DNA of 64,000 nt from a virus. Position 1 is the stretch's first letter; each line of letters starts with the position of its first letter. Position numbers and translations under genes: made by a program. The notes beneath the pieces were generated by a model. It was given only the letters and a program-made list of their open reading frames with translations, was not told where the DNA came from and searched no databases. The stretch spans positions 70,853 to 134,852 of the IMG/VR virus record IMGVR_UViG_3300032294_002710; one strand, 5' to 3'. Of the stretch, positions 51,066 to 63,005 are shown piece by piece.

Positions 51066-51097
51066 AAAAAAACCCAGTCAATTTGACTGGGTTTTTT
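51066..51097. terminator. Bidirectional intrinsic terminator
   Basis: A-run cccagtcaa-t-ttgactggg T-run between convergent genes. Confidence 0.8.
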
Positions 51098-51099
51098 AT

Positions 51100-51519
51100 T
51101 TAATTATTTTCCAATTTTTTTCTATCACTATCTGTTAGTGATTCAATTCCAAATTGATTTATTTTATCAAGAATGTGATCTACTGTAATGTTTTCATTAA
51201 TAAAGTCGTCGATGTTTTTATTAAAATCATCATCATGAAATTTGATTTGACTAAATAATACATCATCTGTAATATCTTCGTAAGTAAAATCCAAGTTCTT
51301 TTGTCGAAAGAATAAGATAATTCTGGTTAGAACATACCTAGTTGTGATAACATATGAGGACATTTTACCATTAATCTCAAAATCATATGCTTTCATATCA
51401 TAACTTTCCAAATCTTCAATTTCTTGAAATGTTAGATTTTTATAAAGCTCTTCAGCTTCATTTTTTGTTAATTCTGTGTTTATCTTATAAACAAACATAT
51501 TTGTGTATTGTGTTTTCAA
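51100..51519 (-). CDS. Protein with DUF6576-like C-terminus
   Basis: VDHILDKINQFGIESLTDSDRKKL. Confidence 0.65.
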   Translation of the reverse strand: MKTQYTNMFVYKINTELTKNEAEELYKNLTFQEIEDLESYDMKAYDFEINGKMSSYVITTRYVLTRIILFFRQKNLDFTYEDITDDVLFSQIKFHDDDFNKNIDDFINENITVDHILDKINQFGIESLTDSDRKKLENN

Positions 51520-51619: not shown

Positions 51620-51970
51620 ATGTTTAAGAAGTTTTACAAAAATATTTATTCACTACCAGCTTTGGTTCTTCACGAACTTTCTCACATTATTGTTTCATTA
51701 CTCTTTGGTGGTAAACTCAATAATGTTATTATTAAGAGCTGTAGTTCAGTAGATTTGAAAATTTCAAATCTTAAAAATATGACACAAGTTAGAATTGTTG
51801 CTATGGCACCATTGATTGTACCACTTGTGTTTATCGGACTTAGTTTTGTGAATACTGATTTTGTGGTATGTGTTATGTATTCTTTGTCAGTTTTCAAGAC
51901 TACATTACCAAGCCCAACAGACTTTACAACAAGTAAGTTTACCGTACCAAAATTTTTGGCAAAAAAATAA
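51620..51970 (+). CDS. Membrane HExxH (M50-like) peptidase, small
   Basis: LHELSH, VAMAPL, PSPTD. Confidence 0.6.
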   Translation: MFKKFYKNIYSLPALVLHELSHIIVSLLFGGKLNNVIIKSCSSVDLKISNLKNMTQVRIVAMAPLIVPLVFIGLSFVNTDFVVCVMYSLSVFKTTLPSPTDFTTSKFTVPKFLAKK

Positions 51971-52009
51971 ACAAAGGGAACATAGAGTATATAATATATA
52001 CTCTTACAT

Positions 52010-52081
52010 TGCGGGGTAGAGCAGAGGTAGCTCGTCAGGCTCATAACCTGAAGGCCGGTGGTTCGATTCCACCCCCCGCTA
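52010..52081 (+). tRNA. tRNA-Met(CAT), initiator-like
   Basis: Cloverleaf; loop ctCATaa; 1:72 mismatch. Confidence 0.9.
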
Positions 52082-52166
52082 CATGAAAAAGAAAATTTGT
52101 ATTTTTATACAGAAAATAACTCTAAACAAGATTTGCTTAGGTTATTGTAAAAATTAATACTCACAC

Positions 52167-52241
52167 TGCGGGTGGGTGAAACGGAAAATCATTCCAGGCT
52201 CATAACCTGTGAGATACTTGGTTCGACTCCAGGACCCGCTA
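52167..52241 (+). tRNA. tRNA-Met(CAT), initiator-like
   Basis: Cloverleaf; loop ctCATaa; 1:72 mismatch. Confidence 0.8.
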
Positions 52242-52260
52242 CAAAAAAATTAAAAAAATA

Positions 52261-52291
52261 TTTGGAGATTTAAAAAATCTTCGTATATTTG
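52261..52291 (+). promoter_or_regulatory. Bacteroidota-type promoter of the Tyr/Glu tRNA operon
   Basis: TTTG-N19-TATATTTG. Confidence 0.8.
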
Positions 52292-52325
52292 TAAAACAAA
52301 ACAGAACAATTTAAAAATAGAAATC

Positions 52326-52406
52326 ATGGCAACTTTTGAAACATATTATTATGAAGCGTATGAGGAACACTCAGCGACTGGAGATACTATGTCTGTGAAA
52401 AGTTGA
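52326..52406 (+). CDS. Leader peptide 1 (MATFETYYYEAYEEHSATGDTMSVKS), Tyr/Glu attenuator
   Basis: 4 Tyr + 4 Glu in codons 5-14; lies between promoter and terminator. Confidence 0.85.
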   Translation: MATFETYYYEAYEEHSATGDTMSVKS

Positions 52407-52436
52407 TATGTAAGATATTAACTAAAAACACAAGTT

Positions 52437-52470
52437 AACCCAGTCAAAATCAAAATTGACTGGGTTTTTT
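52437..52470 (+). terminator. Attenuator terminator 1
   Basis: aacccagtcaa/ttgactgggtt + T run; 5' arm also complementary to leader gactgg (52376-81). Confidence 0.85.
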
Positions 52471-52484
52471 GTTTTAAAATATAT

Positions 52485-52578
52485 TGGGGTATAACGGTAG
52501 GGCATAGTAAGCGCCCGACAGAGTATATAAAACGCCGTATGGACTACCTGTGAGGAGGTTCGATTCCTTCTACTCCAA
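52485..52578 (+). tRNA. Non-canonical tRNA-Tyr(GTA)-like RNA, D-arm rewired
   Basis: Acceptor tggggta/tactcca, T-arm; degenerate anticodon arm with GTA; acggt pairs with gccgt. Confidence 0.5.
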
Positions 52579-52586
52579 CTAAATAT

Positions 52587-52658
52587 GGTCCCATCATCTA
52601 ATGGTTAGGATACAAGACTTTCAATCTTGAAATGCGGGTTCGATCCCCGTTGGGACTA
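52587..52658 (+). tRNA. tRNA-Glu(TTC)
   Basis: Cloverleaf; caaga-ctTTCaa-tcttg. Confidence 0.92.
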
Positions 52659-52667
52659 CAAAAATAT

Positions 52668-52751
52668 GGGAGAGTAACCGGTAACTGGTAGCCGCGCGGA
52701 CTGTAAATCCGCTCTCATTCGAGACTGGGGGTTCGAGTCCCTCCTCTCCCA
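52668..52751 (+). tRNA. tRNA-Tyr(GTA)
   Basis: gcgga-ctGTAaa-tccgc; long variable arm. Confidence 0.92.
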
Positions 52752-52756
52752 CAAAT

Positions 52757-52830
52757 GCTCTTGTCGTCTAACGGTAGGACTCCTGTTTTTCAAACAGATG
52801 TAGATGCGGGTTCGATTCCCGTCAAGAGTA
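52757..52830 (+). tRNA. tRNA-Glu(TTC)
   Basis: ctgt-ttTTCaa-acag. Confidence 0.85.
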
Positions 52831-52838
52831 CTAAATAT

Positions 52839-52932
52839 GGGATGTGTTGTCACAAGGGGTCTGTAAAACCCCTCTCCGTTAACAAAATTGTGACTGGTTT
52901 GGAGTTTAGAGGTTCGATTCCTTCATATCCCA
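52839..52932 (+). tRNA. Non-canonical tRNA-Tyr(GTA), D-arm rewired
   Basis: ggggt-ctGTAaa-acccc; no D hairpin; gtcacaa pairs with ttgtgac in the variable arm. Confidence 0.75.
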
Positions 52933-52940
52933 CTAAATAT

Positions 52941-53015
52941 GGTCCGTTCGTCTAGCCAGGTCTAGGACATCTCCCTTTCACGGAGAAGACACGGGTTCGA
53001 ATCCCGTACGGACTA
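52941..53015 (+). tRNA. tRNA-Glu(TTC)
   Basis: tctcc-ctTTCac-ggaga. Confidence 0.92.
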
Positions 53016-53021
53016 CAATAT

Positions 53022-53095
53022 GGCCCTGTCGTCTACGATGGCTAGGACATCACCCTCTCAAGGTGAAGAAGGCGGATCGACACCGCTCAGGGCTA
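53022..53095 (+). tRNA. tRNA-Glu(CTC)
   Basis: tcacc-ctCTCaa-ggtga; T-loop ATCGACA variant. Confidence 0.88.
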
Positions 53096-53098
53096 CAA

Positions 53099-53240
53099 AA
53101 ATATCAGGAGTACCTGTCGTAGAAAGTTAATTACTTTCCCTGATATTTATACAACTCAATGATGTAAGTGATTTTGGCAGTACCGACAGGAGGGTGAATT
53201 TAATTAGATTCTTTGGGGTTCGATTCCCACCATTGAGTTA
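53099..53240 (+). ncRNA. Two-module structured RNA (hairpin + tRNA-like unit)
   Basis: aaatatcagg/cctgatattt; aactcaatg/cattgagtt with GTTCGATT T-loop; cross-pairing cctgtcg/cgacagg. Confidence 0.5.
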
Positions 53241-53246
53241 TTTTAT

Positions 53247-53332
53247 TGGAAGGTGGCCGAGTGGTTAATGGCGGCAGACTGTAAATCTGCTCTCTTCGGA
53301 GTACGGGGGTTCGAATCCCTCCCTTCCAACCA
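53247..53332 (+). tRNA. tRNA-Tyr(GTA) with encoded CCA
   Basis: gcaga-ctGTAaa-tctgc; variable arm. Confidence 0.93.
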
Positions 53333-53371
53333 AGAAATTATAAAAAATTTCCTAAAATAAGAAATTTTTTA

Positions 53372-53379
53372 TATATTTG
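53372..53379 (+). promoter_or_regulatory. Bacteroidota-type -7 element
   Basis: TATATTTG. Confidence 0.5.
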
Positions 53380-53439
53380 TAAAGTAAATCAAATGTGGCT
53401 AAGTCCTATATGGCAAAAAGTTCATATTTTGATTTTTAT

Positions 53440-53526
53440 GGGAAAGTACCGAAGTGGTCAAACGGGCCTCAGTCGTAACTGGGGTGGCCTTAGGGTCTTC
53501 AGCGGTTCGAATCCGACTCTTTCCCA
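53440..53526 (+). tRNA. Class II tRNA with irregular anticodon loop (probably Tyr-derived)
   Basis: cctcag-tcgtaa-ctgggg gives a 6- or 8-nt loop; long variable arm; A73. Confidence 0.6.
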
Positions 53527-53593
53527 CTAAAATATTTATTAGGAGAGAAAAACTTTTTAATATATATTTATATAACTTAAAATAAAGATAAAA

Positions 53594-53671
53594 ATGAAAG
53601 CAGTTAATAACATATCAATCATAGGGAACGGCGCGATAGCGGGCGGTGGGCCCATTATGCTGATTGGATAA
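53594..53671 (+). CDS. Leader peptide 2 (MKAVNNISIIGNGAIAGGGPIMLIG), Ile/Gly/Ala attenuator
   Basis: 6 Ile (3 ATA), 6 Gly, 3 Ala in 25 codons; precedes terminator. Confidence 0.85.
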   Translation: MKAVNNISIIGNGAIAGGGPIMLIG

Positions 53672-53697
53672 GTTTTAACTCTTTCATTAAAGATACG

Positions 53698-53728
53698 AAC
53701 CCAGTCAGTAAATTGACTGGGTTTTTTT
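53698..53728 (+). terminator. Attenuator terminator 2
   Basis: aacccagtcag/ttgactgggtt + T run; 5' arm complementary to leader ctgattgg (53660-67). Confidence 0.85.
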
Positions 53729-53733
53729 ATTAT

Positions 53734-53814
53734 CGGCAGGTACCGTTGGATGCTTATATCATCTATACACGTAGCGGGAAGTTGAAAACGTGGGTTCGAA
53801 TCCCACCCTGCCGA
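53734..53814 (+). tRNA. Non-canonical tRNA-Ile(TAT), D-arm rewired
   Basis: cggcagg/cctgccg; ggatg-ctTATat-catct; ccgtt pairs with agcgg. Confidence 0.75.
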
Positions 53815-53816
53815 CA

Positions 53817-53890
53817 AACTCAAACTTGTGTTAACTCCTTGAGAGTGAAGTTGTGTACACAACAGGTTTATTCCCATAAGTCCCTGAGTT
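53817..53890 (+). ncRNA. Structured multibranch element in tRNA operon
   Basis: aactca/tgagtt, acttgtg/cataagt, actc/gagt, gttgt/acaac. Confidence 0.4.
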
Positions 53891-53893
53891 ATT

Positions 53894-53967
53894 GCAGAAG
53901 TGGTGTTTAATGGTTAGCATGTGAGACTTCCACTCTCAAGGTGCCGGTTCGAATCCGGTCTTCTGCT
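53894..53967 (+). tRNA. tRNA-Gly(TCC)
   Basis: tgaga-ctTCCac-tctca; U73. Confidence 0.92.
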
Positions 53968-53974
53968 CAGATAT

Positions 53975-54048
53975 GTCGATGACGCATAAATGGTGGTGCA
54001 CCTGATTGCCAATCAGGAATAGAGCCGGTTCGATCCCGGTTATCGACT
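53975..54048 (+). tRNA. tRNA-Gly(GCC)
   Basis: cctga-ttGCCaa-tcagg; U73. Confidence 0.88.
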
Positions 54049-54063
54049 CAGACTTTTCAATAT

Positions 54064-54101
54064 GCCGGAGGACTCCCTGTTAGTCCCAGGGTCCGGCTCC
54101 A
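54064..54101 (+). ncRNA. Acceptor-stem minihelix ending in UCCA
   Basis: gccgga/tccggc followed by t-cca. Confidence 0.35.
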
Positions 54102-54175
54102 GGGGCAGCATGTACCAAGGCTGGCGAAGATTTCTGGCAGAAATCTTGTGATGGATTCAATTTCCATCTGCTCCA
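54102..54175 (+). tRNA. tRNA-Ala(GGC), atypical D-arm, 7-bp anticodon stem
   Basis: G3:U70; aagattt-ctGGCag-aaatctt. Confidence 0.75.
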
Positions 54176-54184
54176 CAAAAATTA

Positions 54185-54259
54185 GGGGATGCATGTACTG
54201 AGGCTAAGCGAAAAGCACTTGCAATGCTTTTGATGTGATTTCGACTATCACCATCTCCA
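54185..54259 (+). tRNA. tRNA-Ala(TGC), atypical D-arm, 7-bp anticodon stem
   Basis: G3:U70; aaaagca-ctTGCaa-tgctttt. Confidence 0.78.
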
Positions 54260-54378
54260 CGAGTTCGATAGAGAAACTCTCCACTTTATGAATGATTTTG
54301 AAAATGTTTTACAAAGGAAGAAGAGTATTAGAAATCAAAAATATCTTGAAAGTCTTAAATAATTTCATATATTTGTAA

Positions 54379-54654
54379 AAATTAAATCTTATTGCCGCAG
54401 AAACAAATAGTAAATTACCTGGTCAATACTGGGAACAATTAAATAAACACGGATTACCTAACTATCTTTACTTAGGGGATGAATTAGTAATCGTTGACAG
54501 TATTGAGAAAAGAAAGAGAAAAAATGGCGCGAAAGTCGATCAGATATATTATATTCTGAGTGATGGTAGAGTAAAGCACGCATCTTTTTTCAAAAAGATT
54601 GATATAAAAGTAATAAAAAGAGATTATCTATTAAATAGTATCTTAAATGATTAA
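54379..54654 (+). CDS. Open frame without ATG/GTG/TTG start (non-canonical start or damaged gene)
   Basis: 91 sense codons after TATATTTG promoter; ends IKRDYLLNSILND overlapping tilS start. Confidence 0.5.
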   Translation, partial: KLNLIAAETNSKLPGQYWEQLNKHGLPNYLYLGDELVIVDSIEKRKRKNGAKVDQIYYILSDGRVKHASFFKKIDIKVIKRDYLLNSILND

Positions 54655-55234
54655 AGTCTTAGGTAAAATTCCTAAAGGTGAATTTGGACTTGCCTGTTCA
54701 GGTGGGGTTGATTCGATGGCTATTGCTAACTTTTTAGTTAATGGTGGTTACAATCCACATATTCTATACTTTAATCATAATACTGAACACGGAGATCTTG
54801 CCGAGAAGTTTGTAACTGAATATTGTCAGAGACATAATCTAAAACTCACAATTGGTAGAACTGATCTTAAACCTCAATCAAATAAAGAAAAGATTTGGAG
54901 TGATTTGAGATATGAGTTTTTCTCAAAATTTGATTTTCCTGTTATTACTTGCCATCATTTAGATGATTGTGTTGAGACTTACATTTTCTCTTGTCTTAGA
55001 GGATTTCAATCGGTTATTCCTTATTCTAAGGGTAATGTAATTCGCCCATTCCTATTGAATGAAAAATCACAATTTTATAAGTGGTGTGAGAATAAAGGAG
55101 TGCCTTTTATTGAGGATGAATCAAATTCATGTGTAGATTATTCAAGAAATCGTATTCGTCATAATATTGTTCCAGAGTCACTGTTGGTAAATCCTGGATT
55201 GAAAACTGTTGTTAAGAAGATGATTACTCTGTAA
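54647..55234 (+). CDS. tilS: tRNA(Ile)-lysidine synthetase, catalytic domain only
   Basis: PP-loop SGGVDSM, RY, HHLDDCVET, IRPFL, DESN..YSRNRIRH. Confidence 0.9.
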   Translation: MIKVLGKIPKGEFGLACSGGVDSMAIANFLVNGGYNPHILYFNHNTEHGDLAEKFVTEYCQRHNLKLTIGRTDLKPQSNKEKIWSDLRYEFFSKFDFPVITCHHLDDCVETYIFSCLRGFQSVIPYSKGNVIRPFLLNEKSQFYKWCENKGVPFIEDESNSCVDYSRNRIRHNIVPESLLVNPGLKTVVKKMITL

Positions 55235-56267
55235 AGTAGATATAGAACTGTTTACAATTTTCCCTATTTGGTACATAGTCTAATTTGGTTTTAAATCCTT
55301 CAGATTTAAAGTAAGATACAATTTCTTCTATTACTGAATTAACTTCATCTAAGATAATTTTGTGTCTAGAAAACCCAGAATCATTTTTTAATGCTCCTGA
55401 TATCCAAACATAAGGATCATTTTGGGTCCACCAAATATGATGCCTATAAATACTATTGCTATCTTTAAGATCTAGTAATATATCATTAACACTTTTTTCA
55501 ATTTCTCTTCTAATTGGGCTTTCAGGTCGGCACCAGTCATATTTATATTGTGGTTTACTGATACTCTCATTGATTTGATCATCCTTCTCATAGAATTCTA
55601 TAATAATGAAGTCACCTTTAAATCCATAATTCATTATATCTGGTTGGGAAATACTTTTTTGATGTTTTAATTGTGGTTCGATCCATTTTTTGAATTCCTC
55701 AATACTATTTAAAGTAATTTCCTCTTCTTTTGTTACGTTATCACTTGTTAAGAAAATTTTATACTCATAATCCTCCATATATCTCACAATATTTTCCAAA
55801 TATTGAATTAGTGTATCATTTATCCGACCACCTCTATCATTAATCCCTGGAGTGTTCCAATCAAATTCATCTAATGGTTCAAGAATAACTTTACAAGAAT
55901 ATTCATCTTCATTATACTTTTCAGTATTTGTATGAATAGTTATACTCCATTCACCTTCATCTTGTAAATCTAAAGATAAATCTTTTAGATGTTCAGAATC
56001 TTCATCTATATTGAATGATTCATTTAGATTTTCATACCATTCTTGTCCTTTGTAATAATGATTCCAAGGTTTAAAATCAGACTTTTTTAATTCTCTTCCA
56101 ACTCTTTTTTCTAAACAAGAAACACAGATATACTTATTTTGTTTAGATTTAGGTATGTATTTTGACCACCCTTCAAACCAATAGTCTTCTGGAAATTTAC
56201 CACAATCAGCACATTCTGCCCATTTAGGTTTTTTATTAAAATCTTCAAATATTTTTAAGTATTTCAT
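55224..56267 (-). CDS. Modular protein with capsid-targeting-like N-terminus and zinc finger
   Basis: MKYLKIFEDF; CADC..CVSC; internal LNES and INES. Confidence 0.7.
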   Translation of the reverse strand: MKYLKIFEDFNKKPKWAECADCGKFPEDYWFEGWSKYIPKSKQNKYICVSCLEKRVGRELKKSDFKPWNHYYKGQEWYENLNESFNIDEDSEHLKDLSLDLQDEGEWSITIHTNTEKYNEDEYSCKVILEPLDEFDWNTPGINDRGGRINDTLIQYLENIVRYMEDYEYKIFLTSDNVTKEEEITLNSIEEFKKWIEPQLKHQKSISQPDIMNYGFKGDFIIIEFYEKDDQINESISKPQYKYDWCRPESPIRREIEKSVNDILLDLKDSNSIYRHHIWWTQNDPYVWISGALKNDSGFSRHKIILDEVNSVIEEIVSYFKSEGFKTKLDYVPNRENCKQFYIYFTE

Positions 56268-56705
56268 TTATATACTGTATTTTATACCAATTTGCCTTAC
56301 GGTTGTATCTATCCATTTAGGATTTAGCAAATCATCAATACTCATATCAAGGCCTGTATTGAGATTGCTATGTATCCAAATTTTGGATATTTTACCACCT
56401 ATTGACTCTATGTAACTTTTAGAAGATAATAATGTGTTTATTATTTCTGATGGTTTAAATAATGATGGTTTGTAGTTTACCCAATCTTCAATTTCTTCAC
56501 CCGTTTCATCATCAATTTTATATGTAATTAAAGATTTTTTTGAAATACTTACATCGATATAGTTGAAGTGTTTATGATGTATATTCTGTGGAACTACTCT
56601 TACATCAAATTCTTCACTTATTTCAGAGTAAATATCTTTAATATATTCAATCATCTCTTCAATTTCCGAAGGTTCGTATGACTCGAATTTTTTTAAGTAT
56701 TTCAT
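56268..56705 (-). CDS. Hypothetical protein, paralog of 57415
   Basis: MKYLKKFESY; YIKDIYSEISEEF, SSKSYIESIGGKISKIW. Confidence 0.75.
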   Translation of the reverse strand: MKYLKKFESYEPSEIEEMIEYIKDIYSEISEEFDVRVVPQNIHHKHFNYIDVSISKKSLITYKIDDETGEEIEDWVNYKPSLFKPSEIINTLLSSKSYIESIGGKISKIWIHSNLNTGLDMSIDDLLNPKWIDTTVRQIGIKYSI

Positions 56706-57415
56706 AAAGGATCTTGAATTACTTCACCATTTTTATCTAATAGTTTAAACTCTTTTGGTTCAAAATAATTATTAGTATATGTTACTTCTCCCTTATTATT
56801 CTTCAGTCTAATATCACCTCCAAATCCAGTATATTTATCAACCAGACCCTTGTGTTCTTGTCCATCTATTGTGAATTCTGCGAATACTTCACCATTTTTA
56901 ATTCTATCTTTAAATAACTTTTTTCTGTATATTACTTCTGGATCTTTTAGATATTTCAACTTTTGCTCTTGATCCTTTATCTTTTTATCCTGTATAGTTG
57001 TTAATTCGGATAATAGTATTTCATATTTACCAGTCTTTTCATCAAATTGACCAATTGAATAGTGTGTATTATTTTTAACTGGTTCAGTAGTTTGACAATG
57101 AACTTTAGGTCCTCTATTTGTTACAAAGTTCCAATGGTCTGATACACGATATGATTTATCAGGCTTAGATTCCCAAGATATATCATCTGACGAATAAAAC
57201 GATTTAGAGTAAGGTGATTTATATATAATCGGCCATTCCTTCATCATTTCTATAATTGAATCTGGAATTCCAAATTGAGATAGTTCTTCTGGTTGATATA
57301 TTTTACCTGTTGGACTTGGATTGTTTTTATGCCAAAGTTCATTTCTAAGTTGTCTTTTACTTTTAACAACCTCTTCACCGCTTTCAAAATCTTCAAATAG
57401 TTTTAAGAATCTCAT
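56702..57415 (-). CDS. Hypothetical protein (RVSDHW motif)
   Basis: MRFLKLFEDF; KSPYSKSFY, YRVSDHWNF. Confidence 0.7.
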   Translation of the reverse strand: MRFLKLFEDFESGEEVVKSKRQLRNELWHKNNPSPTGKIYQPEELSQFGIPDSIIEMMKEWPIIYKSPYSKSFYSSDDISWESKPDKSYRVSDHWNFVTNRGPKVHCQTTEPVKNNTHYSIGQFDEKTGKYEILLSELTTIQDKKIKDQEQKLKYLKDPEVIYRKKLFKDRIKNGEVFAEFTIDGQEHKGLVDKYTGFGGDIRLKNNKGEVTYTNNYFEPKEFKLLDKNGEVIQDPL

Positions 57416-57873
57416 TATAGTATATATTCTATATTAATTTGTACTAAATCTCCGAGATCTGAATGACGATTTAAAAACTCATCAAAACTTAGAGTTATAC
57501 CATCATTTGGATTTGATATATGTAACCATACTTTGGATATTTCACCATCAACTGATTCGATATAACTTTTTGATGTTAGTATTAATTCCATCACTTCGTC
57601 TATTTTAAAAGTAGCTTGTTTAAATTTTGACCAATCATCTGTACCATCCGACTTTTTAAACTCTGGCGATTCCTTGAATATGTTTATGCCTATTGAAGAG
57701 GATTTCCAATTGTGTGTATTTGTGTTATAAGATTTTATATTAAAATCATCTGATATTTCGGAGAAAATATCTTTTAAGTAATCAGACACTTCCTTAAATT
57801 CTTTATCATTAGTTGATTGATGATGGCTTTTTTTGAAGTCATCAAACATTTCAAATAGTTTTAAATATCTCAT
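57415..57873 (-). CDS. Hypothetical protein, paralog of 56268
   Basis: MRYLKLFEMF; YLKDIFSEISDDF, TSKSYIESVDGEISKVW. Confidence 0.75.
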   Translation of the reverse strand: MRYLKLFEMFDDFKKSHHQSTNDKEFKEVSDYLKDIFSEISDDFNIKSYNTNTHNWKSSSIGINIFKESPEFKKSDGTDDWSKFKQATFKIDEVMELILTSKSYIESVDGEISKVWLHISNPNDGITLSFDEFLNRHSDLGDLVQINIEYIL

Positions 57874-57909
57874 TTTTTATATATTAAAAAATCAATTATA
57901 TTTGTAGTT

Positions 57910-58281
57910 ATGATATATGAGTTCTTTACAGATAAAACAACTGGACCACTTACTAATTTTCTAAGTAGTTTGGCTAACATGCCCACTCTGAAGATGCTAG
58001 ATTACACTCTATTAGAGTATCATACACTTGATGTTAAAGAGTATGGTGTTAAGAGGTTTACTTTTGGATATGAAGGTAATACATTTAAGTTTTACTTATC
58101 AAAAAGTGATACTATTGGTTTATCATTTGAGGATAATACCATGCCACATACTGGTGCATTTCATCATTTTAGACTCTATTATACTGGAAACTCAATTAAT
58201 AATTACAAGGTTAATGACGAGATTAGGCAATATTTGTTATCTTTTGTAAGAGATTATAAATTGAGTCAAATAGTAAAATAA
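57910..58281 (+). CDS. Hypothetical protein
   Basis: TATATTTG at 57897; C-terminal RDYKLSQIV. Confidence 0.65.
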   Translation: MIYEFFTDKTTGPLTNFLSSLANMPTLKMLDYTLLEYHTLDVKEYGVKRFTFGYEGNTFKFYLSKSDTIGLSFEDNTMPHTGAFHHFRLYYTGNSINNYKVNDEIRQYLLSFVRDYKLSQIVK

Positions 58282-58282
58282 A

Positions 58283-58314
58283 TTTGGAAGATTAAACTTT
58301 AATACATATATTTG
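58283..58314 (+). promoter_or_regulatory. Bacteroidota-type sigma-A promoter
   Basis: TTTG-N20-TATATTTG. Confidence 0.7.
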
Positions 58315-58400
58315 TAAAATAATAATAACATATCATTTTTCTTTGATCAAAAGGTGGAGAAAAAATTTTCAAAGAAATTTGAAAAAAAAAGAAAAAAGAT

Positions 58401-59225
58401 ATGAAAAATGAAAAAGATAGCCTCGGCAACCGCATGAAGGCTTACGAAAACCAAACCTGTGGAATCAAAATGCTTCCACTTATCCCTGTAATCGCTCGTC
58501 TTGATGGTAAGGGATTCTCTAAATTTACTAAAGGTCTTAAACGACCTTATGATGAAAGGCTTTCAAATCTTATGATTGAAACCACAAAGTATCTTGTAAA
58601 AGAAACTAATGCTAATTGTGGTTACACTCAAAGTGACGAAATCACTCTTATGTGGTACTCTGATAGTCATGAGTCAAAAATCTACTTTGATGGTAGACTT
58701 TTCAAAATGATTTCAGATCTTGCTTCAATGGGTTCTGTATTCTTCAATTCTAAACTTGCTGAATACATTCCTGAGAAGAAAGATAAAATGCCAAGATTCG
58801 ATTGTCGAGTTTGGAATGTTCCGAATGTAGATGAAGCCGTGAATGTTTTTTACTGGAGAGAAAAAGATGCAACCAAGAACTCTATTACAATGGCTGCTTC
58901 TGAATACTACTCACACAATTTCCTTATGGGTAAGAATGGTTCTGAAAAACAAGAATTACTTTTCCAAAAAGGTGTAAACTGGAATGATTATCCATCTTTC
59001 TTTAAAAGAGGTAGTTACATTCAAAGAAAGCGAGTTGTAAGTAAGTTTAGCAGTGAAGAACTTGAGAGACTTCCACTTAAACACAAGGCAAGACTTAATC
59101 CAGATCTTGAAATCGAAAGATGGGTTATTGATCGTGTAGAACTTCCACCACTCTCAACTATTGAGAATAAAGTTGGTGTGATTGTATATGGTGAAGATGT
59201 GAAAATTAAAAGTCCAGTTTTTTAA
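58401..59225 (+). CDS. Thg1-like tRNA(His) guanylyltransferase / 3'-5' polymerase
   Basis: RMKAYE, RLDGKGFSKFT, YTQSDEI, FDCR, WREKDATKNS. Confidence 0.92.
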   Translation: MKNEKDSLGNRMKAYENQTCGIKMLPLIPVIARLDGKGFSKFTKGLKRPYDERLSNLMIETTKYLVKETNANCGYTQSDEITLMWYSDSHESKIYFDGRLFKMISDLASMGSVFFNSKLAEYIPEKKDKMPRFDCRVWNVPNVDEAVNVFYWREKDATKNSITMAASEYYSHNFLMGKNGSEKQELLFQKGVNWNDYPSFFKRGSYIQRKRVVSKFSSEELERLPLKHKARLNPDLEIERWVIDRVELPPLSTIENKVGVIVYGEDVKIKSPVF

Positions 59226-59237
59226 CTGGACTTTTTT
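59208..59237 (+). terminator. Intrinsic terminator
   Basis: aaaagtccagtt/aactggactttt + T run. Confidence 0.7.
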
Positions 59238-59266
59238 ATATATATTTGTAAAACTAATTTTCAAAA

Positions 59267-59590
59267 ATGAAACATATTTCCGGAATTAATGAGTCTTTTA
59301 AAGACAGAAGAAGAAAAGAAATTGAGGCAGAAATTGCTAGAAAACAAAAAGAACTTGATGAATTGCAAAATTCTGAAAATGATGCAGTAATTGAGTTAAG
59401 TGATTATACAACAGAAGATAAAGTTAAGTTCTTTGATAGGATGTATAAGATGGCCGCAGAACACTTACAAAGTGCTGAGGATGGTCGTGTAGATGATGAT
59501 GCTGAACATTGGTTTTTTGAGGAAGGATTTGGAATTTTGAACCTAAAAGACAAAAGAAAACTTTGGAATTTCTATAATGAACTTATTTAA
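59267..59590 (+). CDS. Hypothetical protein
   Basis: MKHISGINESF. Confidence 0.7.
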   Translation: MKHISGINESFKDRRRKEIEAEIARKQKELDELQNSENDAVIELSDYTTEDKVKFFDRMYKMAAEHLQSAEDGRVDDDAEHWFFEEGFGILNLKDKRKLWNFYNELI

Positions 59591-59595
59591 CTACT

Positions 59596-59970
59596 ATGAT
59601 AATAAAAAAATTTAATGAATCTGTTGAAAGTCCTAAAGTAAGACTTGCAGAATATTGTGAACTTGAAGGTGATTGTAATAATTACGATCTATATGAGCTT
59701 TTTAAACAACACACTGGAATTGAATTAGAGTTTGAGGCTGGTCAAGAATATGGAACAGGTTGTTATGGGCTAATTAGATTTATGGATAATAATCCCAAAT
59801 CTACTTATAGATTTTATCCTACTCTAGAAGAATTAGAAGATAAGATTCAAAAATATAAAGATAAAAAACTTGGTAAATATGAATATATCACTGCCAATGA
59901 TATAGTAAACTACTTTAGAAGAAAGGGAATTCTACCTGAAAAAGATTTTCTATTTAACGTTGACTATTAA
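59596..59970 (+). CDS. Hypothetical protein
   Basis: MIIKKFNES. Confidence 0.7.
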   Translation: MIIKKFNESVESPKVRLAEYCELEGDCNNYDLYELFKQHTGIELEFEAGQEYGTGCYGLIRFMDNNPKSTYRFYPTLEELEDKIQKYKDKKLGKYEYITANDIVNYFRRKGILPEKDFLFNVDY

Positions 59971-60029
59971 TGTGTAATTTCAAACTTTATTAGAAACTTT
60001 ATATACAAATAAAAACTAAATTAAATAAA

Positions 60030-60452
60030 ATGATTAAAGAAGGTAGTAAAGTTAAAGCCCATTATACTGGTCGTTTAACGAATAATGATGTTTTTGACAC
60101 ATCGTTGAGAGATGGTCGTGAGCCATTAGAGTTTGTAGTTGGTGAAGGATCACTTATTCCAGGATTTGAAAATGGTATAATGGGTTTGTCTAAAGGAGAC
60201 AAGAAAACTGTAAATATACCACCATCTGAAGCTTATGGGGAATACAGACAAGATTTGTGCTTAACAGTTCCAAAGACTAATGTGCCACCTGGTATTCAAG
60301 TTGGACAAACACTTCAAGCTAATACAGATGGTCAAATGGTTCCATTTATTGTTAGAGAAGTGATGGAGAATGAAGTTATTGTTGATGCGAATCATCCATT
60401 AGCTGGTCAAGAATTGATTTTTGATATTGAAATTGTAGATATTGAAAATTAA
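60030..60452 (+). CDS. FKBP-type peptidyl-prolyl isomerase (SlyD-like)
   Basis: HYTG, FDTS, LIPGFE, AYG, DANHPLAG. Confidence 0.93.
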   Translation: MIKEGSKVKAHYTGRLTNNDVFDTSLRDGREPLEFVVGEGSLIPGFENGIMGLSKGDKKTVNIPPSEAYGEYRQDLCLTVPKTNVPPGIQVGQTLQANTDGQMVPFIVREVMENEVIVDANHPLAGQELIFDIEIVDIEN

Positions 60453-60483
60453 TTTGGAAGTTAAAAAAACTTCCTTATATTTG
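60453..60483 (+). promoter_or_regulatory. Bacteroidota-type sigma-A promoter
   Basis: TTTG-N19-TATATTTG. Confidence 0.75.
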
Positions 60484-60489
60484 TAAAAT

Positions 60490-60567
60490 AAAACAGAGAA
60501 CTCCGGTATGGTCTCAATCATTACTCAGAACCGGGCTTCGGAGAGTTACAAGTTGAGACTCTGTTTT
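60490..60567 (+). ncRNA. Candidate pseudoknotted small RNA
   Basis: aaaacagag/ctctgtttt, aactc/gagtt, ccggt/accgg, crossing gtctcaa/ttgagac. Confidence 0.5.
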
Positions 60568-60587
60568 TAAAAAAAAATTAAAAAATA

Positions 60588-60618
60588 TTTGAAAGATTAA
60601 AACTTTTTCATATATTTG
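60588..60618 (+). promoter_or_regulatory. Bacteroidota-type promoter of the third tRNA operon
   Basis: TTTG-N19-TATATTTG. Confidence 0.8.
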
Positions 60619-60663
60619 TATAAAATAACACAAAGAGACAAAAACTTTTTAATATATAAAAAA

Positions 60664-60777
60664 ATGAGAACAATGAATCTAAATATCACAAATTTGAACC
60701 TCACAATGGTGGTGAATAATACATTATGTATTAGAACCGCTGGTTCGGGTTGTGCAAAATTTGGATTTATCTCGTGA
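60664..60777 (+). CDS. Leader peptide 3 (MRTMNLNITNLNLTMVVNNTLCIRTAGSGCAKFGFIS), multi-amino-acid attenuator
   Basis: First 25 codons use only M,R,T,N,L,I,V,C, the set of downstream tRNAs. Confidence 0.88.
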   Translation: MRTMNLNITNLNLTMVVNNTLCIRTAGSGCAKFGFIS

Positions 60778-60804
60778 TGAATTGATATAATCCAAAAAAG
60801 ATAC

Positions 60805-60840
60805 AAACCCGAACCGTAAAAAGTTCGGGTTTTTTGTTTT
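60805..60840 (+). terminator. Attenuator terminator 3
   Basis: aaacccgaac/gttcgggttt + T run; 5' arm has a perfect 10-nt complement ggttcgggtt (60742-51) in the leader. Confidence 0.88.
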
Positions 60841-60844
60841 ATAC

Positions 60845-60919
60845 GCTCCCGTAGCCCAATTGGCAGAGGCAACAGACTTAAACCCTGTACAGGTATCGGT
60901 TCGAATCCGATGGGGAGTA
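60845..60919 (+). tRNA. tRNA with anticodon TAA (Leu), short variable region
   Basis: acaga-ctTAAac-cctgt. Confidence 0.75.
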
Positions 60920-60967
60920 CAAAAAGAGAAGGTGACATATCGCACTCTGAAAATGCGAAATGGTAAT

Positions 60968-61051
60968 GCCCAGGTGGTGGAATTGGTAGACACCCCGGTC
61001 TAAGAAGCCGGTGTCCGTAAGGACGTGAGAGTTCGAGTCTCTCCTTGGGTA
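60968..61051 (+). tRNA. tRNA-Leu(AAG)
   Basis: ccggt-ctAAGaa-gccgg; variable arm. Confidence 0.88.
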
Positions 61052-61119
61052 CGAAAGTTTTTAACCCCTTCCAGATATTTCCGCTGTTGTCTGGAAGGGG
61101 TGGAGACAAGGATTAAAAT

Positions 61120-61202
61120 ACCTTTGTGGCGAAATTGGTAGCACGCGCTGGTCTTAGAAACCAGTTCCGAAAGGAGTGTCGGTTCGAATCCGACTAAAGG
61201 TA
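61120..61202 (+). tRNA. tRNA-Leu(TAG)
   Basis: ctggt-ctTAGaa-accag. Confidence 0.92.
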
Positions 61203-61208
61203 CAAAAT

Positions 61209-61281
61209 GGTCTCTTCGTCCAACTGGACAGGACATCGGTCTTCTAAACCGAGGATATGGGTTCGAATCCCGTAGGGACTA
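61209..61281 (+). tRNA. tRNA-Arg(TCT)
   Basis: tcggt-ctTCTaa-accga. Confidence 0.9.
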
Positions 61282-61287
61282 CTAAAA

Positions 61288-61372
61288 GGATGGGTTGCTT
61301 TAGAGGCCGAAAAGTCTGGACTGTTAATCCAGTGTCGCAAGACCACCGTGGGTTCGAATCCCACCCTGTCCT
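61288..61372 (+). tRNA. tRNA-Asn(GTT) with long variable arm
   Basis: ctgga-ctGTTaa-tccag; gtc-gcaa-gac arm. Confidence 0.8.
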
Positions 61373-61385
61373 CAAAATTATATAC

Positions 61386-61472
61386 TGGCAGTTGGCCGAG
61401 AGGACGATGGCAGTGGACTGTTAATCCACCGTAGCGAAAGCTCCAACATAGGTTCGAATCCTATACTGTCAG
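61386..61472 (+). tRNA. tRNA-Asn(GTT) with long variable arm
   Basis: gtgga-ctGTTaa-tccac; agc-gaaa-gct arm; G73. Confidence 0.85.
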
Positions 61473-61483
61473 CTAACAAAATA

Positions 61484-61565
61484 CGGCAAGTACCAGCCCA
61501 TCCTGATAAGATGGAGAACTGTAGTTGGTATGTTGAAAACGTGGGTTCGAGTCCCACCTTGCCGA
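61484..61565 (+). tRNA. Non-canonical tRNA-Ile(GAT), D-arm rewired
   Basis: cggcaag/cttgccg; ccatc-ctGATaa-gatgg; taccagc pairs with gttggta. Confidence 0.78.
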
Positions 61566-61575
61566 CAAAGGATTA

Positions 61576-61649
61576 GCCTCCTTAGCTTTAATTGGTAGAG
61601 CACCTGACTTGTAATCAGGGGGTTGTCGGTTCGAGTCCGGCAGGAGGCT
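61576..61649 (+). tRNA. tRNA-Thr(TGT)
   Basis: cctga-ctTGTaa-tcagg. Confidence 0.93.
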
Positions 61650-61656
61650 CATATAT

Positions 61657-61739
61657 AGGAATAGTAATTGAAAGAGATACTTCGATCAAACTTCTAATTT
61701 GGCAACGAAACCAAAAACTCTTTTAAGATTTTCTTTCCT
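61657..61739 (+). ncRNA. Y-RNA-like RNA copy C
   Basis: agga/tcct, tagtaat, ttgaaagag/ctcttttaa, ATACTTCG motif. Confidence 0.55.
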
Positions 61740-61743
61740 TTAT

Positions 61744-61826
61744 GCACAGGTGGTAGAGTGGCGAATGCAACGGCCTGCAAAGCCGTAGTCGAAAGACCAT
61801 CGGGGGTTCGAGTCCCTCCCTGTGCT
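61744..61826 (+). tRNA. tRNA-Cys(GCA) with long variable arm
   Basis: acggc-ctGCAaa-gccgt; gtc-gaaa-gac arm; U73. Confidence 0.87.
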
Positions 61827-61832
61827 CAACTT

Positions 61833-61903
61833 GCCCCGGTGGCGTAATGGGAGCGTACTTGTTTTACATGCAAGTGGCAGTGGTTCGAATCCACTTCGGG
61901 GTA
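61833..61903 (+). tRNA. tRNA-Val(TAC)
   Basis: cttgt-ttTACat-gcaag. Confidence 0.87.
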
Positions 61904-61910
61904 CTAAAAT

Positions 61911-61984
61911 TGGAATATAGCTCAGTTGGTTAGAGCAATTCGCTGATACCGAATAGGTCGCTGGTTCGAGTCCAGCTATTCCAA
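61911..61984 (+). tRNA. tRNA-Ile(GAT)
   Basis: attcg-ctGATac-cgaat. Confidence 0.92.
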
Positions 61985-61989
61985 CAAAA

Positions 61990-62103
61990 ATGTATGGTGA
62001 TTAAAAGTGTTACTTCGTGAAATGGTTAACACAATTGTTTTAAACACAATTATTTACTGGTTCGAATCCAGTAGTATAAACCACTTTTAAACCTTTCCTA
62101 CAT
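61990..62103 (+). ncRNA. Y-RNA-like RNA copy D with tRNA-like domain (YrlA-type architecture)
   Basis: atgta/tacat, ttaaaagtg/cacttttaa, TTACTTCG, then D-arm, anticodon-like arm and T-arm actgg-TTCGAAT-ccagt. Confidence 0.7.
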
Positions 62104-62108
62104 TTAAT

Positions 62109-62193
62109 GCCGATGTGGCTCAGTGGCGACAGCACCGGTTTTGTAAACCGGAGACGATTTAGTCCAGCGGGGGTTCGAGTCCCTCCATCGGCT
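62109..62193 (+). tRNA. tRNA-Thr(TGT) with long variable arm
   Basis: ccggt-ttTGTaa-accgg. Confidence 0.85.
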
Positions 62194-62195
62194 CA

Positions 62196-62303
62196 ATGAA
62201 TGTGTGAATGCACGATAAACTAAAACGGCACCAGCGGAGACTGGAGTGGATATTGGAAACACATAACCACCACAAATGTAGGAGAATACCCTACCACATT
62301 CAT
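62196..62303 (+). ncRNA. tRNA-like structured RNA of unknown type
   Basis: atgaatgtg/cacattcat acceptor-like stem; gtagg-agaatac-cctac T-like arm; ccag/ctgg and gtgg/ccac hairpins. Confidence 0.5.
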
Positions 62304-62308
62304 CAAAT

Positions 62309-62382
62309 AGTCTTGTAGCTCAGTTGGTTAGAGCGTTTGGTCGACATCCAAAAGGTCATCGGTTCGAATCCGGTCAGGACTA
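62309..62382 (+). tRNA. tRNA-Val(GAC)
   Basis: tttgg-tcGACat-ccaaa (C33). Confidence 0.88.
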
Positions 62383-62387
62383 CAAAA

Positions 62388-62459
62388 GCCAATGTCGTAT
62401 AACGGCAATTACACACCGTTGGTATCGGTGAGACACCAGTTCAACTCTGGTCTTTGGCT
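62388..62459 (+). tRNA. tRNA-Thr(GGT)
   Basis: caccg-ttGGTat-cggtg. Confidence 0.85.
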
Positions 62460-62464
62460 CAAAT

Positions 62465-62554
62465 GCCTCAGTGGCGAAACTGGTTGAAACGCCTTAGTCT
62501 TAGGAACTAAGACCCAAGTGGTAAACGTTGTCGGTTCGAATCCGACCTGAGGTA
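62465..62554 (+). tRNA. tRNA-Leu(TAG)
   Basis: ttagt-ctTAGga-actaa; variable arm. Confidence 0.9.
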
Positions 62555-62571
62555 CAAAAAATATAATAAAA

Positions 62572-62775
62572 ATGGCAAAGTGGTATAACATAGTTAAAAG
62601 ATATAAAGGTGAATCTAAGAGTCACAAGAGATTTTATTCTTCCAGAGATATGATGGAGTTAAAAAGAATGATATCAGTTGCAAACTCGGAGGCTAAAAGA
62701 GGTTTGAGAAAACCTTATAAAGGAATCTCACCTTGTGGATGTGGAATGGAAGGATGTTTCATTTTGTATTCATAA
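62572..62775 (+). CDS. Small basic protein inside tRNA operon
   Basis: 67 aa between tRNAs; CGCGMEGC. Confidence 0.55.
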   Translation: MAKWYNIVKRYKGESKSHKRFYSSRDMMELKRMISVANSEAKRGLRKPYKGISPCGCGMEGCFILYS

Positions 62776-62780
62776 AAAAT

Positions 62781-62865
62781 GCCGAAATGGCGGAACTGGT
62801 AGACGCGCCGGCCTCAAAAGCTGGTGTCCTTAAAGGACGTGTGGGTTCGAGTCCCACTTTCGGTA
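62781..62865 (+). tRNA. tRNA-Leu(CAA)
   Basis: ccggc-ctCAAaa-gctgg; variable arm. Confidence 0.92.
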
Positions 62866-62870
62866 CAAAT

Positions 62871-62942
62871 GGCGATATGGTGTAACGGCAAGCTCACATG
62901 GCTCATATCCTTGAGGACCAGGTTCGATTCCTGGTATCGCTA
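62871..62942 (+). tRNA. tRNA(CAT), elongator Met or Ile2
   Basis: catgg-ctCATat-ccttg. Confidence 0.8.
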
Positions 62943-63005
62943 CCTTGAATTTTTTTAAAAATAAACCAAGATGGAGAAATTGTGATATAAAAATGAAATT
63001 TAAAA

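Follow-up and report, generated by a model that had tools for sequence, protein, structure and literature searches.

We analyzed a 64,000-nucleotide stretch of AT-rich phage DNA (hereafter, the window), which covers positions 70,853 to 134,852 of the IMG/VR virus record IMGVR_UViG_3300032294_002710; the 134,852-base contig of origin has a G+C content of 30%. ARAGORN identified 28 tRNA genes in the window, all of them within positions 52010-62944. The element studied here is a short leader open reading frame (ORF) followed by an intrinsic terminator and then by an array of isoleucine, glycine and alanine tRNA genes (Table 1). A first-pass annotation, made from the sequence alone, had described it as a leader-peptide attenuator with ATA control codons, and had given the order of the array as Ile(TAT), Gly(TCC), Gly(GCC), Ala(GGC), and Ala(TGC). 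Both Gly genes and Ala(TGC) are called by ARAGORN with default settings and Ala(GGC) is recovered at a relaxed threshold. The description is thus correct, with the caveat that the Ile(TAT) gene gives no canonical tRNA call.

By direct count the leader contains 6 Ile, 6 Gly, and 3 Ala codons, which confirms the figure of 15 of 25 given by the annotation; ATA occupies codons 7, 10, and 15. Gly is encoded by GGG (twice), GGC (twice), GGT, and GGA, and Ala by GCG (twice) and GCA. All of these fall in the control-codon run except GGA and GCA, the latter being codon 3, upstream of the run. The GC-rich codons do stand out: among the 34,611 codons of the long ORFs of this phage, GGG and GGC account for 2.8% and 4.0% of Gly codons and GCG for 5.7% of Ala codons. 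When the array is restricted to the amino acids that ARAGORN alone assigns to it, Ala and Gly, these residues still make up 9/24 of the leader (0.09 expected, p = 1.2e-4). The leader keeps its ATG in 24/24 aligned homologues despite variation in the peptide. We also considered whether the leader's GC-rich core is a degenerate tRNA, and rejected this because ARAGORN (default or relaxed) and Rfam gave no tRNA match there.

The terminator begins 25 bases past the leader stop codon and its hairpin has a folding energy of -16.5 kcal/mol. Its stem sequence recurs in the window at 52439-52464 and 51073-51091 (three matches in total, 0 expected), the last copy being away from tRNA genes, just past the 3' end of a minus-strand ORF (51100-51519). 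The 8-nt pairing between the leader end and the terminator that the annotation had pointed out (53660-53667 with 53701-53708) was recovered inside a 10-bp helix that includes two G-U pairs. The annotation also had short ttttaa/ttaaag segments extend this hairpin, from which the inner helices of the minimum-energy fold deviate slightly. The resulting antiterminator is predicted at -15.2 kcal/mol and would compete with the terminator. The 149 nt that span leader and terminator (53585-53733) fold at -51.5 kcal/mol into two hairpins, the leader on itself and the terminator, a structure with z = -7.07 that was as stable in 0/200 shuffles.

We then modeled the fold as a function of ribosome position, covering the RNA up to 12 nt past the A-site codon and ending the transcript before the 3' arm of the terminator. 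The predicted sequestration of the terminator 5' arm is about 0.96-1.0 with the A site at codons 1-18 and then falls to 0.2 across codons 18-25, close to the 0.22 obtained for the window without a ribosome. Reducing the footprint to 9 nt places the switch at codon 21, after every ATA, Gly, and Ala codon of the control region, and the codons past it are only ATT, ATG, CTG, ATT, and GGA. In a shuffle control, the window leader reached a sequestration of 0.96, against 0.56 +/- 0.16 in shuffled sequences, a value attained by 1/100 of them.

Table 1. Leader units, tRNA genes and predicted RNA structures in the tRNA region of the 64-kb window (positions counted from its first letter).
Feature	Position	Strand	Description
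Sister leader, Tyr/Glu-rich	52326-52406		Followed by a terminator with the common stem, then Glu, Tyr, Glu, Glu, Glu, and Tyr tRNAs
Conserved 17-nt box, putative promoter-like or 5'-leader element	53550..53566	+	Precedes the leader ATG by about 28 nt
Leader ORF	53594..53671	+	ATG start, 25 codons and TAA; 6 Ile (3 ATA), 6 Gly, 3 Ala
Control-codon run, codons 7-19	53612..53650	+	4 Ile (ATA three times, ATC), 5 Gly (GGG twice, GGC twice, GGT), 2 Ala (GCG twice)
Anti-antiterminator hairpin (region 1:2), predicted	53594..53692	+	Whole leader folded on itself, -32.2 kcal/mol
Antiterminator hairpin (region 2:3), predicted	53658..53710	+	53658-53667 paired with 53701-53710, and two inner helices
Intrinsic terminator (region 3:4)	53697..53730	+	12-bp stem (5 G-C, 53697-53724), 4-nt loop, T run
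tRNA-like element, TAT anticodon loop, non-canonical	53734..53815	+	Canonical T arm and acceptor stem, without a normal D arm
tRNA-Gly(UCC)	53894..53968	+	ARAGORN default; Rfam
tRNA-Gly(GCC)	53975..54049	+	ARAGORN default; Rfam
tRNA-Ala(GGC), atypical D arm	54102..54176	+	ARAGORN relaxed threshold only (54105-54176)
tRNA-Ala(UGC)	54185..54260	+	ARAGORN default; Rfam tRNA 21 bits, under the gathering score
Sister leader, 37 codons (Asn/Leu/Thr class)	60664-60777		Followed by a terminator, then 17 tRNAs

The firmest evidence comes from comparing loci: the composition of a leader follows that of the tRNA set it precedes. Comparable loci were gathered from three sources: a neighboring PP-loop gene, as in the window (80 loci), the terminator pattern in IMG/VR (36), and the same pattern in metagenome contigs (at least 120). 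A fixed rule was applied to all of them. The terminator had to have 9 or more pairs, the leader was taken as the longest ATG ORF whose end lies at most 75 nt upstream of it, and the array as the ARAGORN tRNAs downstream, as far as the next terminator or a gap of 900 nt. Of the 56 terminator records of the first round, 4 were dropped for weak stems and 2 for lack of an ORF, and 41 distinct leaders resulted; the metagenome scan raised the number of records to 136, and removal of 6 with weak stems and 6 that had no ORF led to 92 distinct leaders.

In the 41 leaders, cognate residues exceeded the amino-acid background of the phage by 0.17 on average, compared with 0.022 +/- 0.015 when arrays were permuted, and 0/10,000 permutations reached this value. 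Since homologous leaders are not independent, we repeated the permutation at the level of classes. When each of the nine leader classes was represented by a single leader, the observed match was reached in 2/362,880 permutations, and 7/9 representatives fitted their own array best. The second round added further classes: leaders with Gln runs precede Gln tRNAs, Ser/Arg leaders precede Ser and Arg tRNAs, His/Phe/Lys(/Trp) leaders precede those tRNAs, and there are Pro/His/Lys/Gln and Asp/Leu/Ala/Glu/Met/Val leaders. Among homologues it is the composition of the leader that is kept, while the order of the residues and the length of the peptide vary.

The position of the cognate codons within the leaders points in the same direction. 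Among the 92 leaders, 85 of which were usable, cognate residues account for 653/1423 positions before the predicted switch and 116/806 after it (669/1477 and 83/706 with a shorter footprint), a difference whose p-values overstate the evidence because the counts include homologues. The concentration before the switch is found in every leader class. The mean sequestration of the terminator arm over leaders goes from 0.69 at early codons to 0.12 at the stop codon. The change from antiterminator to terminator is predicted by the model to fall just after the last cognate codon (85/92 leaders).

The match extends to the choice of synonymous codons, and the proposal that ATA codons are control codons is supported by these data. 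In the 16 leaders that precede arrays with Ile(tat) only, the Ile codons are ATA 48 times, ATT 14 times, and ATC 6 times, whereas in the 6 leaders before arrays with Ile(gat) only they are ATA once, ATT 7 times, and ATC 4 times (Fisher p = 7e-5; the background share of ATA is 39%). In the 25 Ile/Gly/Ala leaders, 70/91 Ile codons before the switch are ATA (with 11 ATC and 10 ATT), against 1/14 after it (12 ATT and 1 ATC). The leaders found before Gly or Ala tRNAs use GGC 59 times, GGA 32, GGG 17, and GGT 13 for Gly, and GCG 42 times, GCA 9, GCT 3, and GCC 2 for Ala, which is the reverse of the usage of the phage itself. Over all classes, 647/764 cognate residues are in codons that can be read by the anticodons of the array, a modest excess over the 600 expected.

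Together, these observations make it probable, on sequence and modeling grounds, that a ribosome-mediated (leader-peptide) transcription attenuator gates the phage Ile/Gly/Ala tRNA transcription unit. The ORF, the terminator, a mutually exclusive antiterminator, and an anti-antiterminator are all present or predicted, which supports the attenuator proposed by the first-pass annotation, and the arrangement recurs in the 92 leaders. We infer from this that the leader is translated, that ribosomes stall on it, and that read-through is regulated. Transcription would start upstream of position 53594 and a ribosome would load on the 25-codon leader. If codons 7-19 are read fast, the ribosome would reach the last codons and the stop and mask positions 53658-67, the terminator would form, and the polymerase would halt before the tRNA genes. 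If charged tRNAs are scarce and any of the Ile (mainly ATA), Gly (GGC, GGG, or GGT), or Ala (GCG) codons is slow, the ribosome would stall upstream, the segment 53658-67 would pair with the 5' arm of the terminator (53701-10), no terminator would form, and the polymerase would enter the five tRNA genes. Without translation, the leader would fold on itself (1:2) and termination would prevail. As the tRNA products would relieve the stall, the circuit would amount to a negative feedback on tRNA supply, of which the attenuator is best read as the sensor.

Several observations weigh against this interpretation. Among the sequencing runs in which this stretch occurs, none was identified as RNA. Three Asn codons of the leader have no Asn tRNA downstream, no leader codon is GCC or GCT to match tRNA-Ala(GGC), no Shine-Dalgarno sequence precedes the ATG, and the rare GC-rich codons could serve RNA structure instead of decoding. 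One ATA per leader lies within a 6-nt box that is shared with the Glu/Tyr leaders and is complementary to the 3' end of the leader; structure therefore accounts for part of the ATA signal, which leaves about two ATA per leader. The potential to form an antiterminator seems partly generic in our model, because shuffled leaders already sequester the terminator arm at a mean of 0.47, and only 22/41 leaders beat 95/100 of their shuffles. In the ribosome-position model, the state without ribosome is itself an antiterminated one in many homologues (mean 0.52 over the 92 leaders). RNAalifold on the 24 Ile/Gly/Ala homologues returned the terminator only and gave helices 1:2 and 2:3 no support from covariation, for which neither the MAFFT alignment, with its indels in the leader, nor the invariant terminator stem of this class leaves scope. 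The class was also partly ascertained through this same stem. Finally, the duplex of the window-type leader with its own arm has an energy of -8.4 kcal/mol, compared with a mean of -8.1 for unrelated arms, and 10/26 unrelated arms bind equally well or better.

Over all leaders, the duplex with the own arm is at -10.5 kcal/mol against -7.1 for unrelated arms, and 24/92 leaders beat all unrelated arms. Covariation was encountered only in the Asn/Leu/Thr class, in which there are at least four terminator stems that differ between phages, each with a complementary leader segment that changes alongside; 7/8 leaders of this class beat all unrelated arms, and the one in the window is equalled or beaten by 1/52. 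The duplex test thus supports arm specificity overall but not in the Ile/Gly/Ala class.

The first gene of the array is a further point against the attenuator as described, since the Ile(TAT)-like element is missed by ARAGORN with default settings and by the Rfam tRNA model. ARAGORN run at a relaxed threshold makes it an Arg(tct) whose anticodon stem is poor, while reading by eye gives a 5-bp stem with a 7-nt loop that carries TAT. A canonical tRNA-Ile(tat) occupies the same place in relatives, including one whose leader is 90.5% identical (L158). We assign the element to Ile(UAU) because of this anticodon loop and of the synteny with relatives. The only Rfam match there is a sub-threshold one to a tmRNA end (19.7 bits, against 47), which reads as the tRNA-like acceptor and T arm of this odd element. 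A homologue with GAT in a 7-nt anticodon loop lies at 61484-61566; in both, the acceptor and T arms are normal, a normal D arm is lacking, and the anticodon arm is followed by a long segment. The first of the two stands in for the canonical tRNA-Ile(tat) of L158 and other relatives, in the window as well as at one other locus (L122). Between the Ile-like element and tRNA-Gly(UCC) lies a 78-nt spacer (53816-53893) that folds as a long hairpin (-19.5 kcal/mol for 53807-53895). As for tRNA-Ala(GGC), it has no Rfam tRNA match, and reading by eye places the start of its acceptor stem at 54102, with a G3:U70 pair.

Other explanations of the locus were weighed against the same data. The polarity of the switch might be reversed, or the element might be a general translation gate, responding for example to the phase of infection and not specifically to Ile, Gly, and Ala. 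The state without ribosome does vary, from 0.07 to 0.8 in 9 Ile/Gly/Ala leaders (aside from the overall mean given above), and the element could answer mainly to the arrival of a ribosome at the end of the leader. But a general gate requires neither a leader composition and an Ile codon choice that shift with the set of tRNAs downstream, nor a concentration of cognate codons before the switch, and we regard it as improbable. Even less likely is a constitutive insulator terminator preceded by a short ORF that is untranslated chance sequence or a structured RNA that is open by accident. It is true that the terminator is strong, that its stem is reused (including the copy away from the tRNAs), and that ATG ORFs of at least 8 codons are easily found in AT-rich DNA, here with no Shine-Dalgarno sequence. 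Chance ORFs would not track the identity of the array across nine classes, nor choose between ATA and ATT/ATC according to the downstream Ile anticodon, nor keep their ATG in all aligned homologues while the peptide changes. Furthermore, a constitutive 12-bp terminator between the conserved box and leader on one side and five tRNA genes on the other would leave the tRNAs untranscribed.

The two remaining alternatives seem to us very remote. One is direct sensing without a ribosome, as in T-boxes, where the run of codons would pair with the anticodons of uncharged tRNAs and stabilize the antiterminator. It shares with the proposed attenuator the sensing of tRNA and the choice between terminator and antiterminator. 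A scan of 51900-54700 with Rfam at E values up to 1 gave 17 matches, none of them to a T-box, a riboswitch, or an amino acid leader (His, Thr, Leu, Trp, Phe, among others). There is also no single specifier, but codons for up to eight amino acids in one frame, with a conserved ATG and a stop. The other takes the small peptide to be a functional micro-protein acting in trans, with a terminator that merely ends its gene. Homologues do share N-terminal residues and, near codons 6-7, an Asn-Ile pair, but otherwise the composition is conserved and not the sequence, with variable order and length; the complementarity of the Asn-Ile box to the leader's 3' end points to RNA structure, and the match to the downstream tRNAs is left unexplained. 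Ribosome-mediated attenuation remains the reading that we prefer.

The Ile/Gly/Ala leader is one of three such units in the window, and all three are also found in both of the approximately 640-kb relatives of this phage. The block of 17 tRNAs that follows the Asn/Leu/Thr leader is made of Leu, Arg, Asn, Thr, Cys, Val, Ile, and Met tRNAs. In the complete 642-kb genome LR756502.1, where the Rfam tRNA model identifies 50 tRNAs, a leader and a terminator are present ahead of 7/7 arrays with multiple tRNAs. The genes without a leader unit in this genome are a stand-alone tRNA-like gene and two tRNA genes on the other strand, 580 nt apart. The former (L240, 435101-435173) has an unassignable two-base anticodon call, "tt", and its own terminator. 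In the same genome, a 67-codon ORF is inserted between the terminator of the Asn/Leu/Thr attenuator and the first tRNA (L001, 17050-17250). Another locus (L003, 7410-7526) has a Met/Lys-rich ORF of 19 codons, with 4 internal Met, and an AT-rich terminator before a lone tRNA-Met(cat), and no antiterminator is predicted there (sequestration 0.01).

The conserved 17-nt box upstream of the leader has exact copies in the 64 kb only there and at 60642-60658, before the Asn/Leu/Thr leader. When up to 2 mismatches are allowed there are 5 matches, for 0.43 expected, and the box is kept in the alignment of 24 sequences. A different box, of 12 nt, has 9 copies in the window, one of which precedes the Tyr/Glu leader; we take it to be of the Bacteroidota -7 type from the TAnnTTTG consensus. 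This consensus and the 9 copies are the only grounds for a Bacteroidota host, an assignment that we do not press. Between a general promoter box (53372) and the Ile/Gly/Ala leader, there is a tRNA-like gene (53440-53525) with an enlarged loop and a four-base anticodon (cgta), identified by ARAGORN at a slightly lowered threshold only and by a weak Rfam match of the tRNA-Sec type (21 bits).

Directly after the Ile/Gly/Ala array, positions 54647-55234 encode a PP-loop ATPase of 195 amino acids (PF01171, E = 2.5e-31) that has 250 relatives among viral contigs. This family takes in the tRNA-Ile lysidine synthetase (TilS). The combination of a UAU-type tRNA and a PP-loop ATPase therefore gives the phage an ATA reader plus a TilS-like enzyme. 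When the region 53300-55300 was compared with 50,697 phage records using blastn, the sole relatives were two uncultured phages of 635 and 642 kb, in both of which the match is limited to the PP-loop gene, and no cultured phage was among the matches.

Attenuation by leader peptides is well known from the trp, his, leu, and phe leaders of enterobacteria, and from the ilvGMEDA and thr leaders, which respond to Ile/Leu/Val and Thr/Ile, respectively. As in these last two, the phage leaders are short and rich in cognate codons, with several amino acids per leader, and are predicted to have regions 1:2, 2:3, and 3:4 with an intrinsic terminator, such that a stalled ribosome would favor the antiterminator. 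Unlike them, they precede tRNA genes and not biosynthetic enzymes, so the quantity sensed and the product belong to the same class of molecule. They also differ in matching at the level of isoacceptors and codons (ATA with UAU, ATT/ATC with GAU), in being encoded by a phage with one cassette per tRNA sub-array, and in having no Rfam leader match and no Shine-Dalgarno sequence. A further departure, this time from the classical trp design, is the antiterminated state of many phage homologues in the absence of a ribosome. In Escherichia coli, the pheM leader of pheST controls an aminoacyl-tRNA synthetase by attenuation, with one amino acid sensed; the phage element would similarly act on a component of the translation apparatus, but its targets would be the tRNA genes themselves. 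T-box riboswitches also read tRNA status through a choice between terminator and antiterminator ahead of translation-related genes, but they bind uncharged tRNA directly and free of ribosomes, whereas the phage element has a conserved ORF.

The closest case of an inducible tRNA array that we identified is the trn operon of Anabaena sp. PCC 7120, a long array of supernumerary tRNAs that, according to two studies, stays silent unless impaired translation induces it (PMC8421152, PMC10272220). Its control is ascribed there to a protein repressor, TrcR (PMC10272220), unlike what we propose for the phage leaders. The terms attenuat*, leader, and terminator are absent from the main texts of both articles, as they are from the main text of Al-Shayeb et al. 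2020 (PMC7162821), the source of the genomes of the two relatives. In a full-text literature search, no published description of tRNA genes under the control of leader-peptide attenuation was found.

The system is thus best read, from its sequences and modeled folds, as ribosome-mediated attenuation, a known mechanism, whose targets here are tRNA genes and in which ATA is matched at the codon level to tRNA-Ile(UAU). If true, it would be the first leader-peptide attenuation of tRNA genes, a tRNA-pool sensor built into a virus, and would extend the textbook attenuation of trp and ilv to a class of targets in which the input of the sensor and its output are the same molecule. It would also provide annotators with a simple signature for the functional grouping of phage tRNA arrays, and supply compact, modular tRNA-responsive switches. 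The role of phage tRNAs has been debated for decades between codon compensation and the evasion of tRNA-cleaving defenses, as set out in a published account (PMC10264068), and the leaders described here would make the question of their deployment testable. More broadly, we lean towards the view that giant phages run their tRNA genes as demand-driven modules, each sub-array having its own leader peptide as a gauge, matched in its codons to the tRNAs of the sub-array down to the isoacceptor (ATA for tRNA-Ile(UAU)). A module would then be switched on only when its part of the tRNA pool of the cell runs short, a shortage that could come from a codon demand of the phage in excess of the minor tRNAs of the host or from host defenses that cleave particular tRNAs. 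If so, the phage would gauge decoding capacity for each set of codons and respond with the matching tRNAs.

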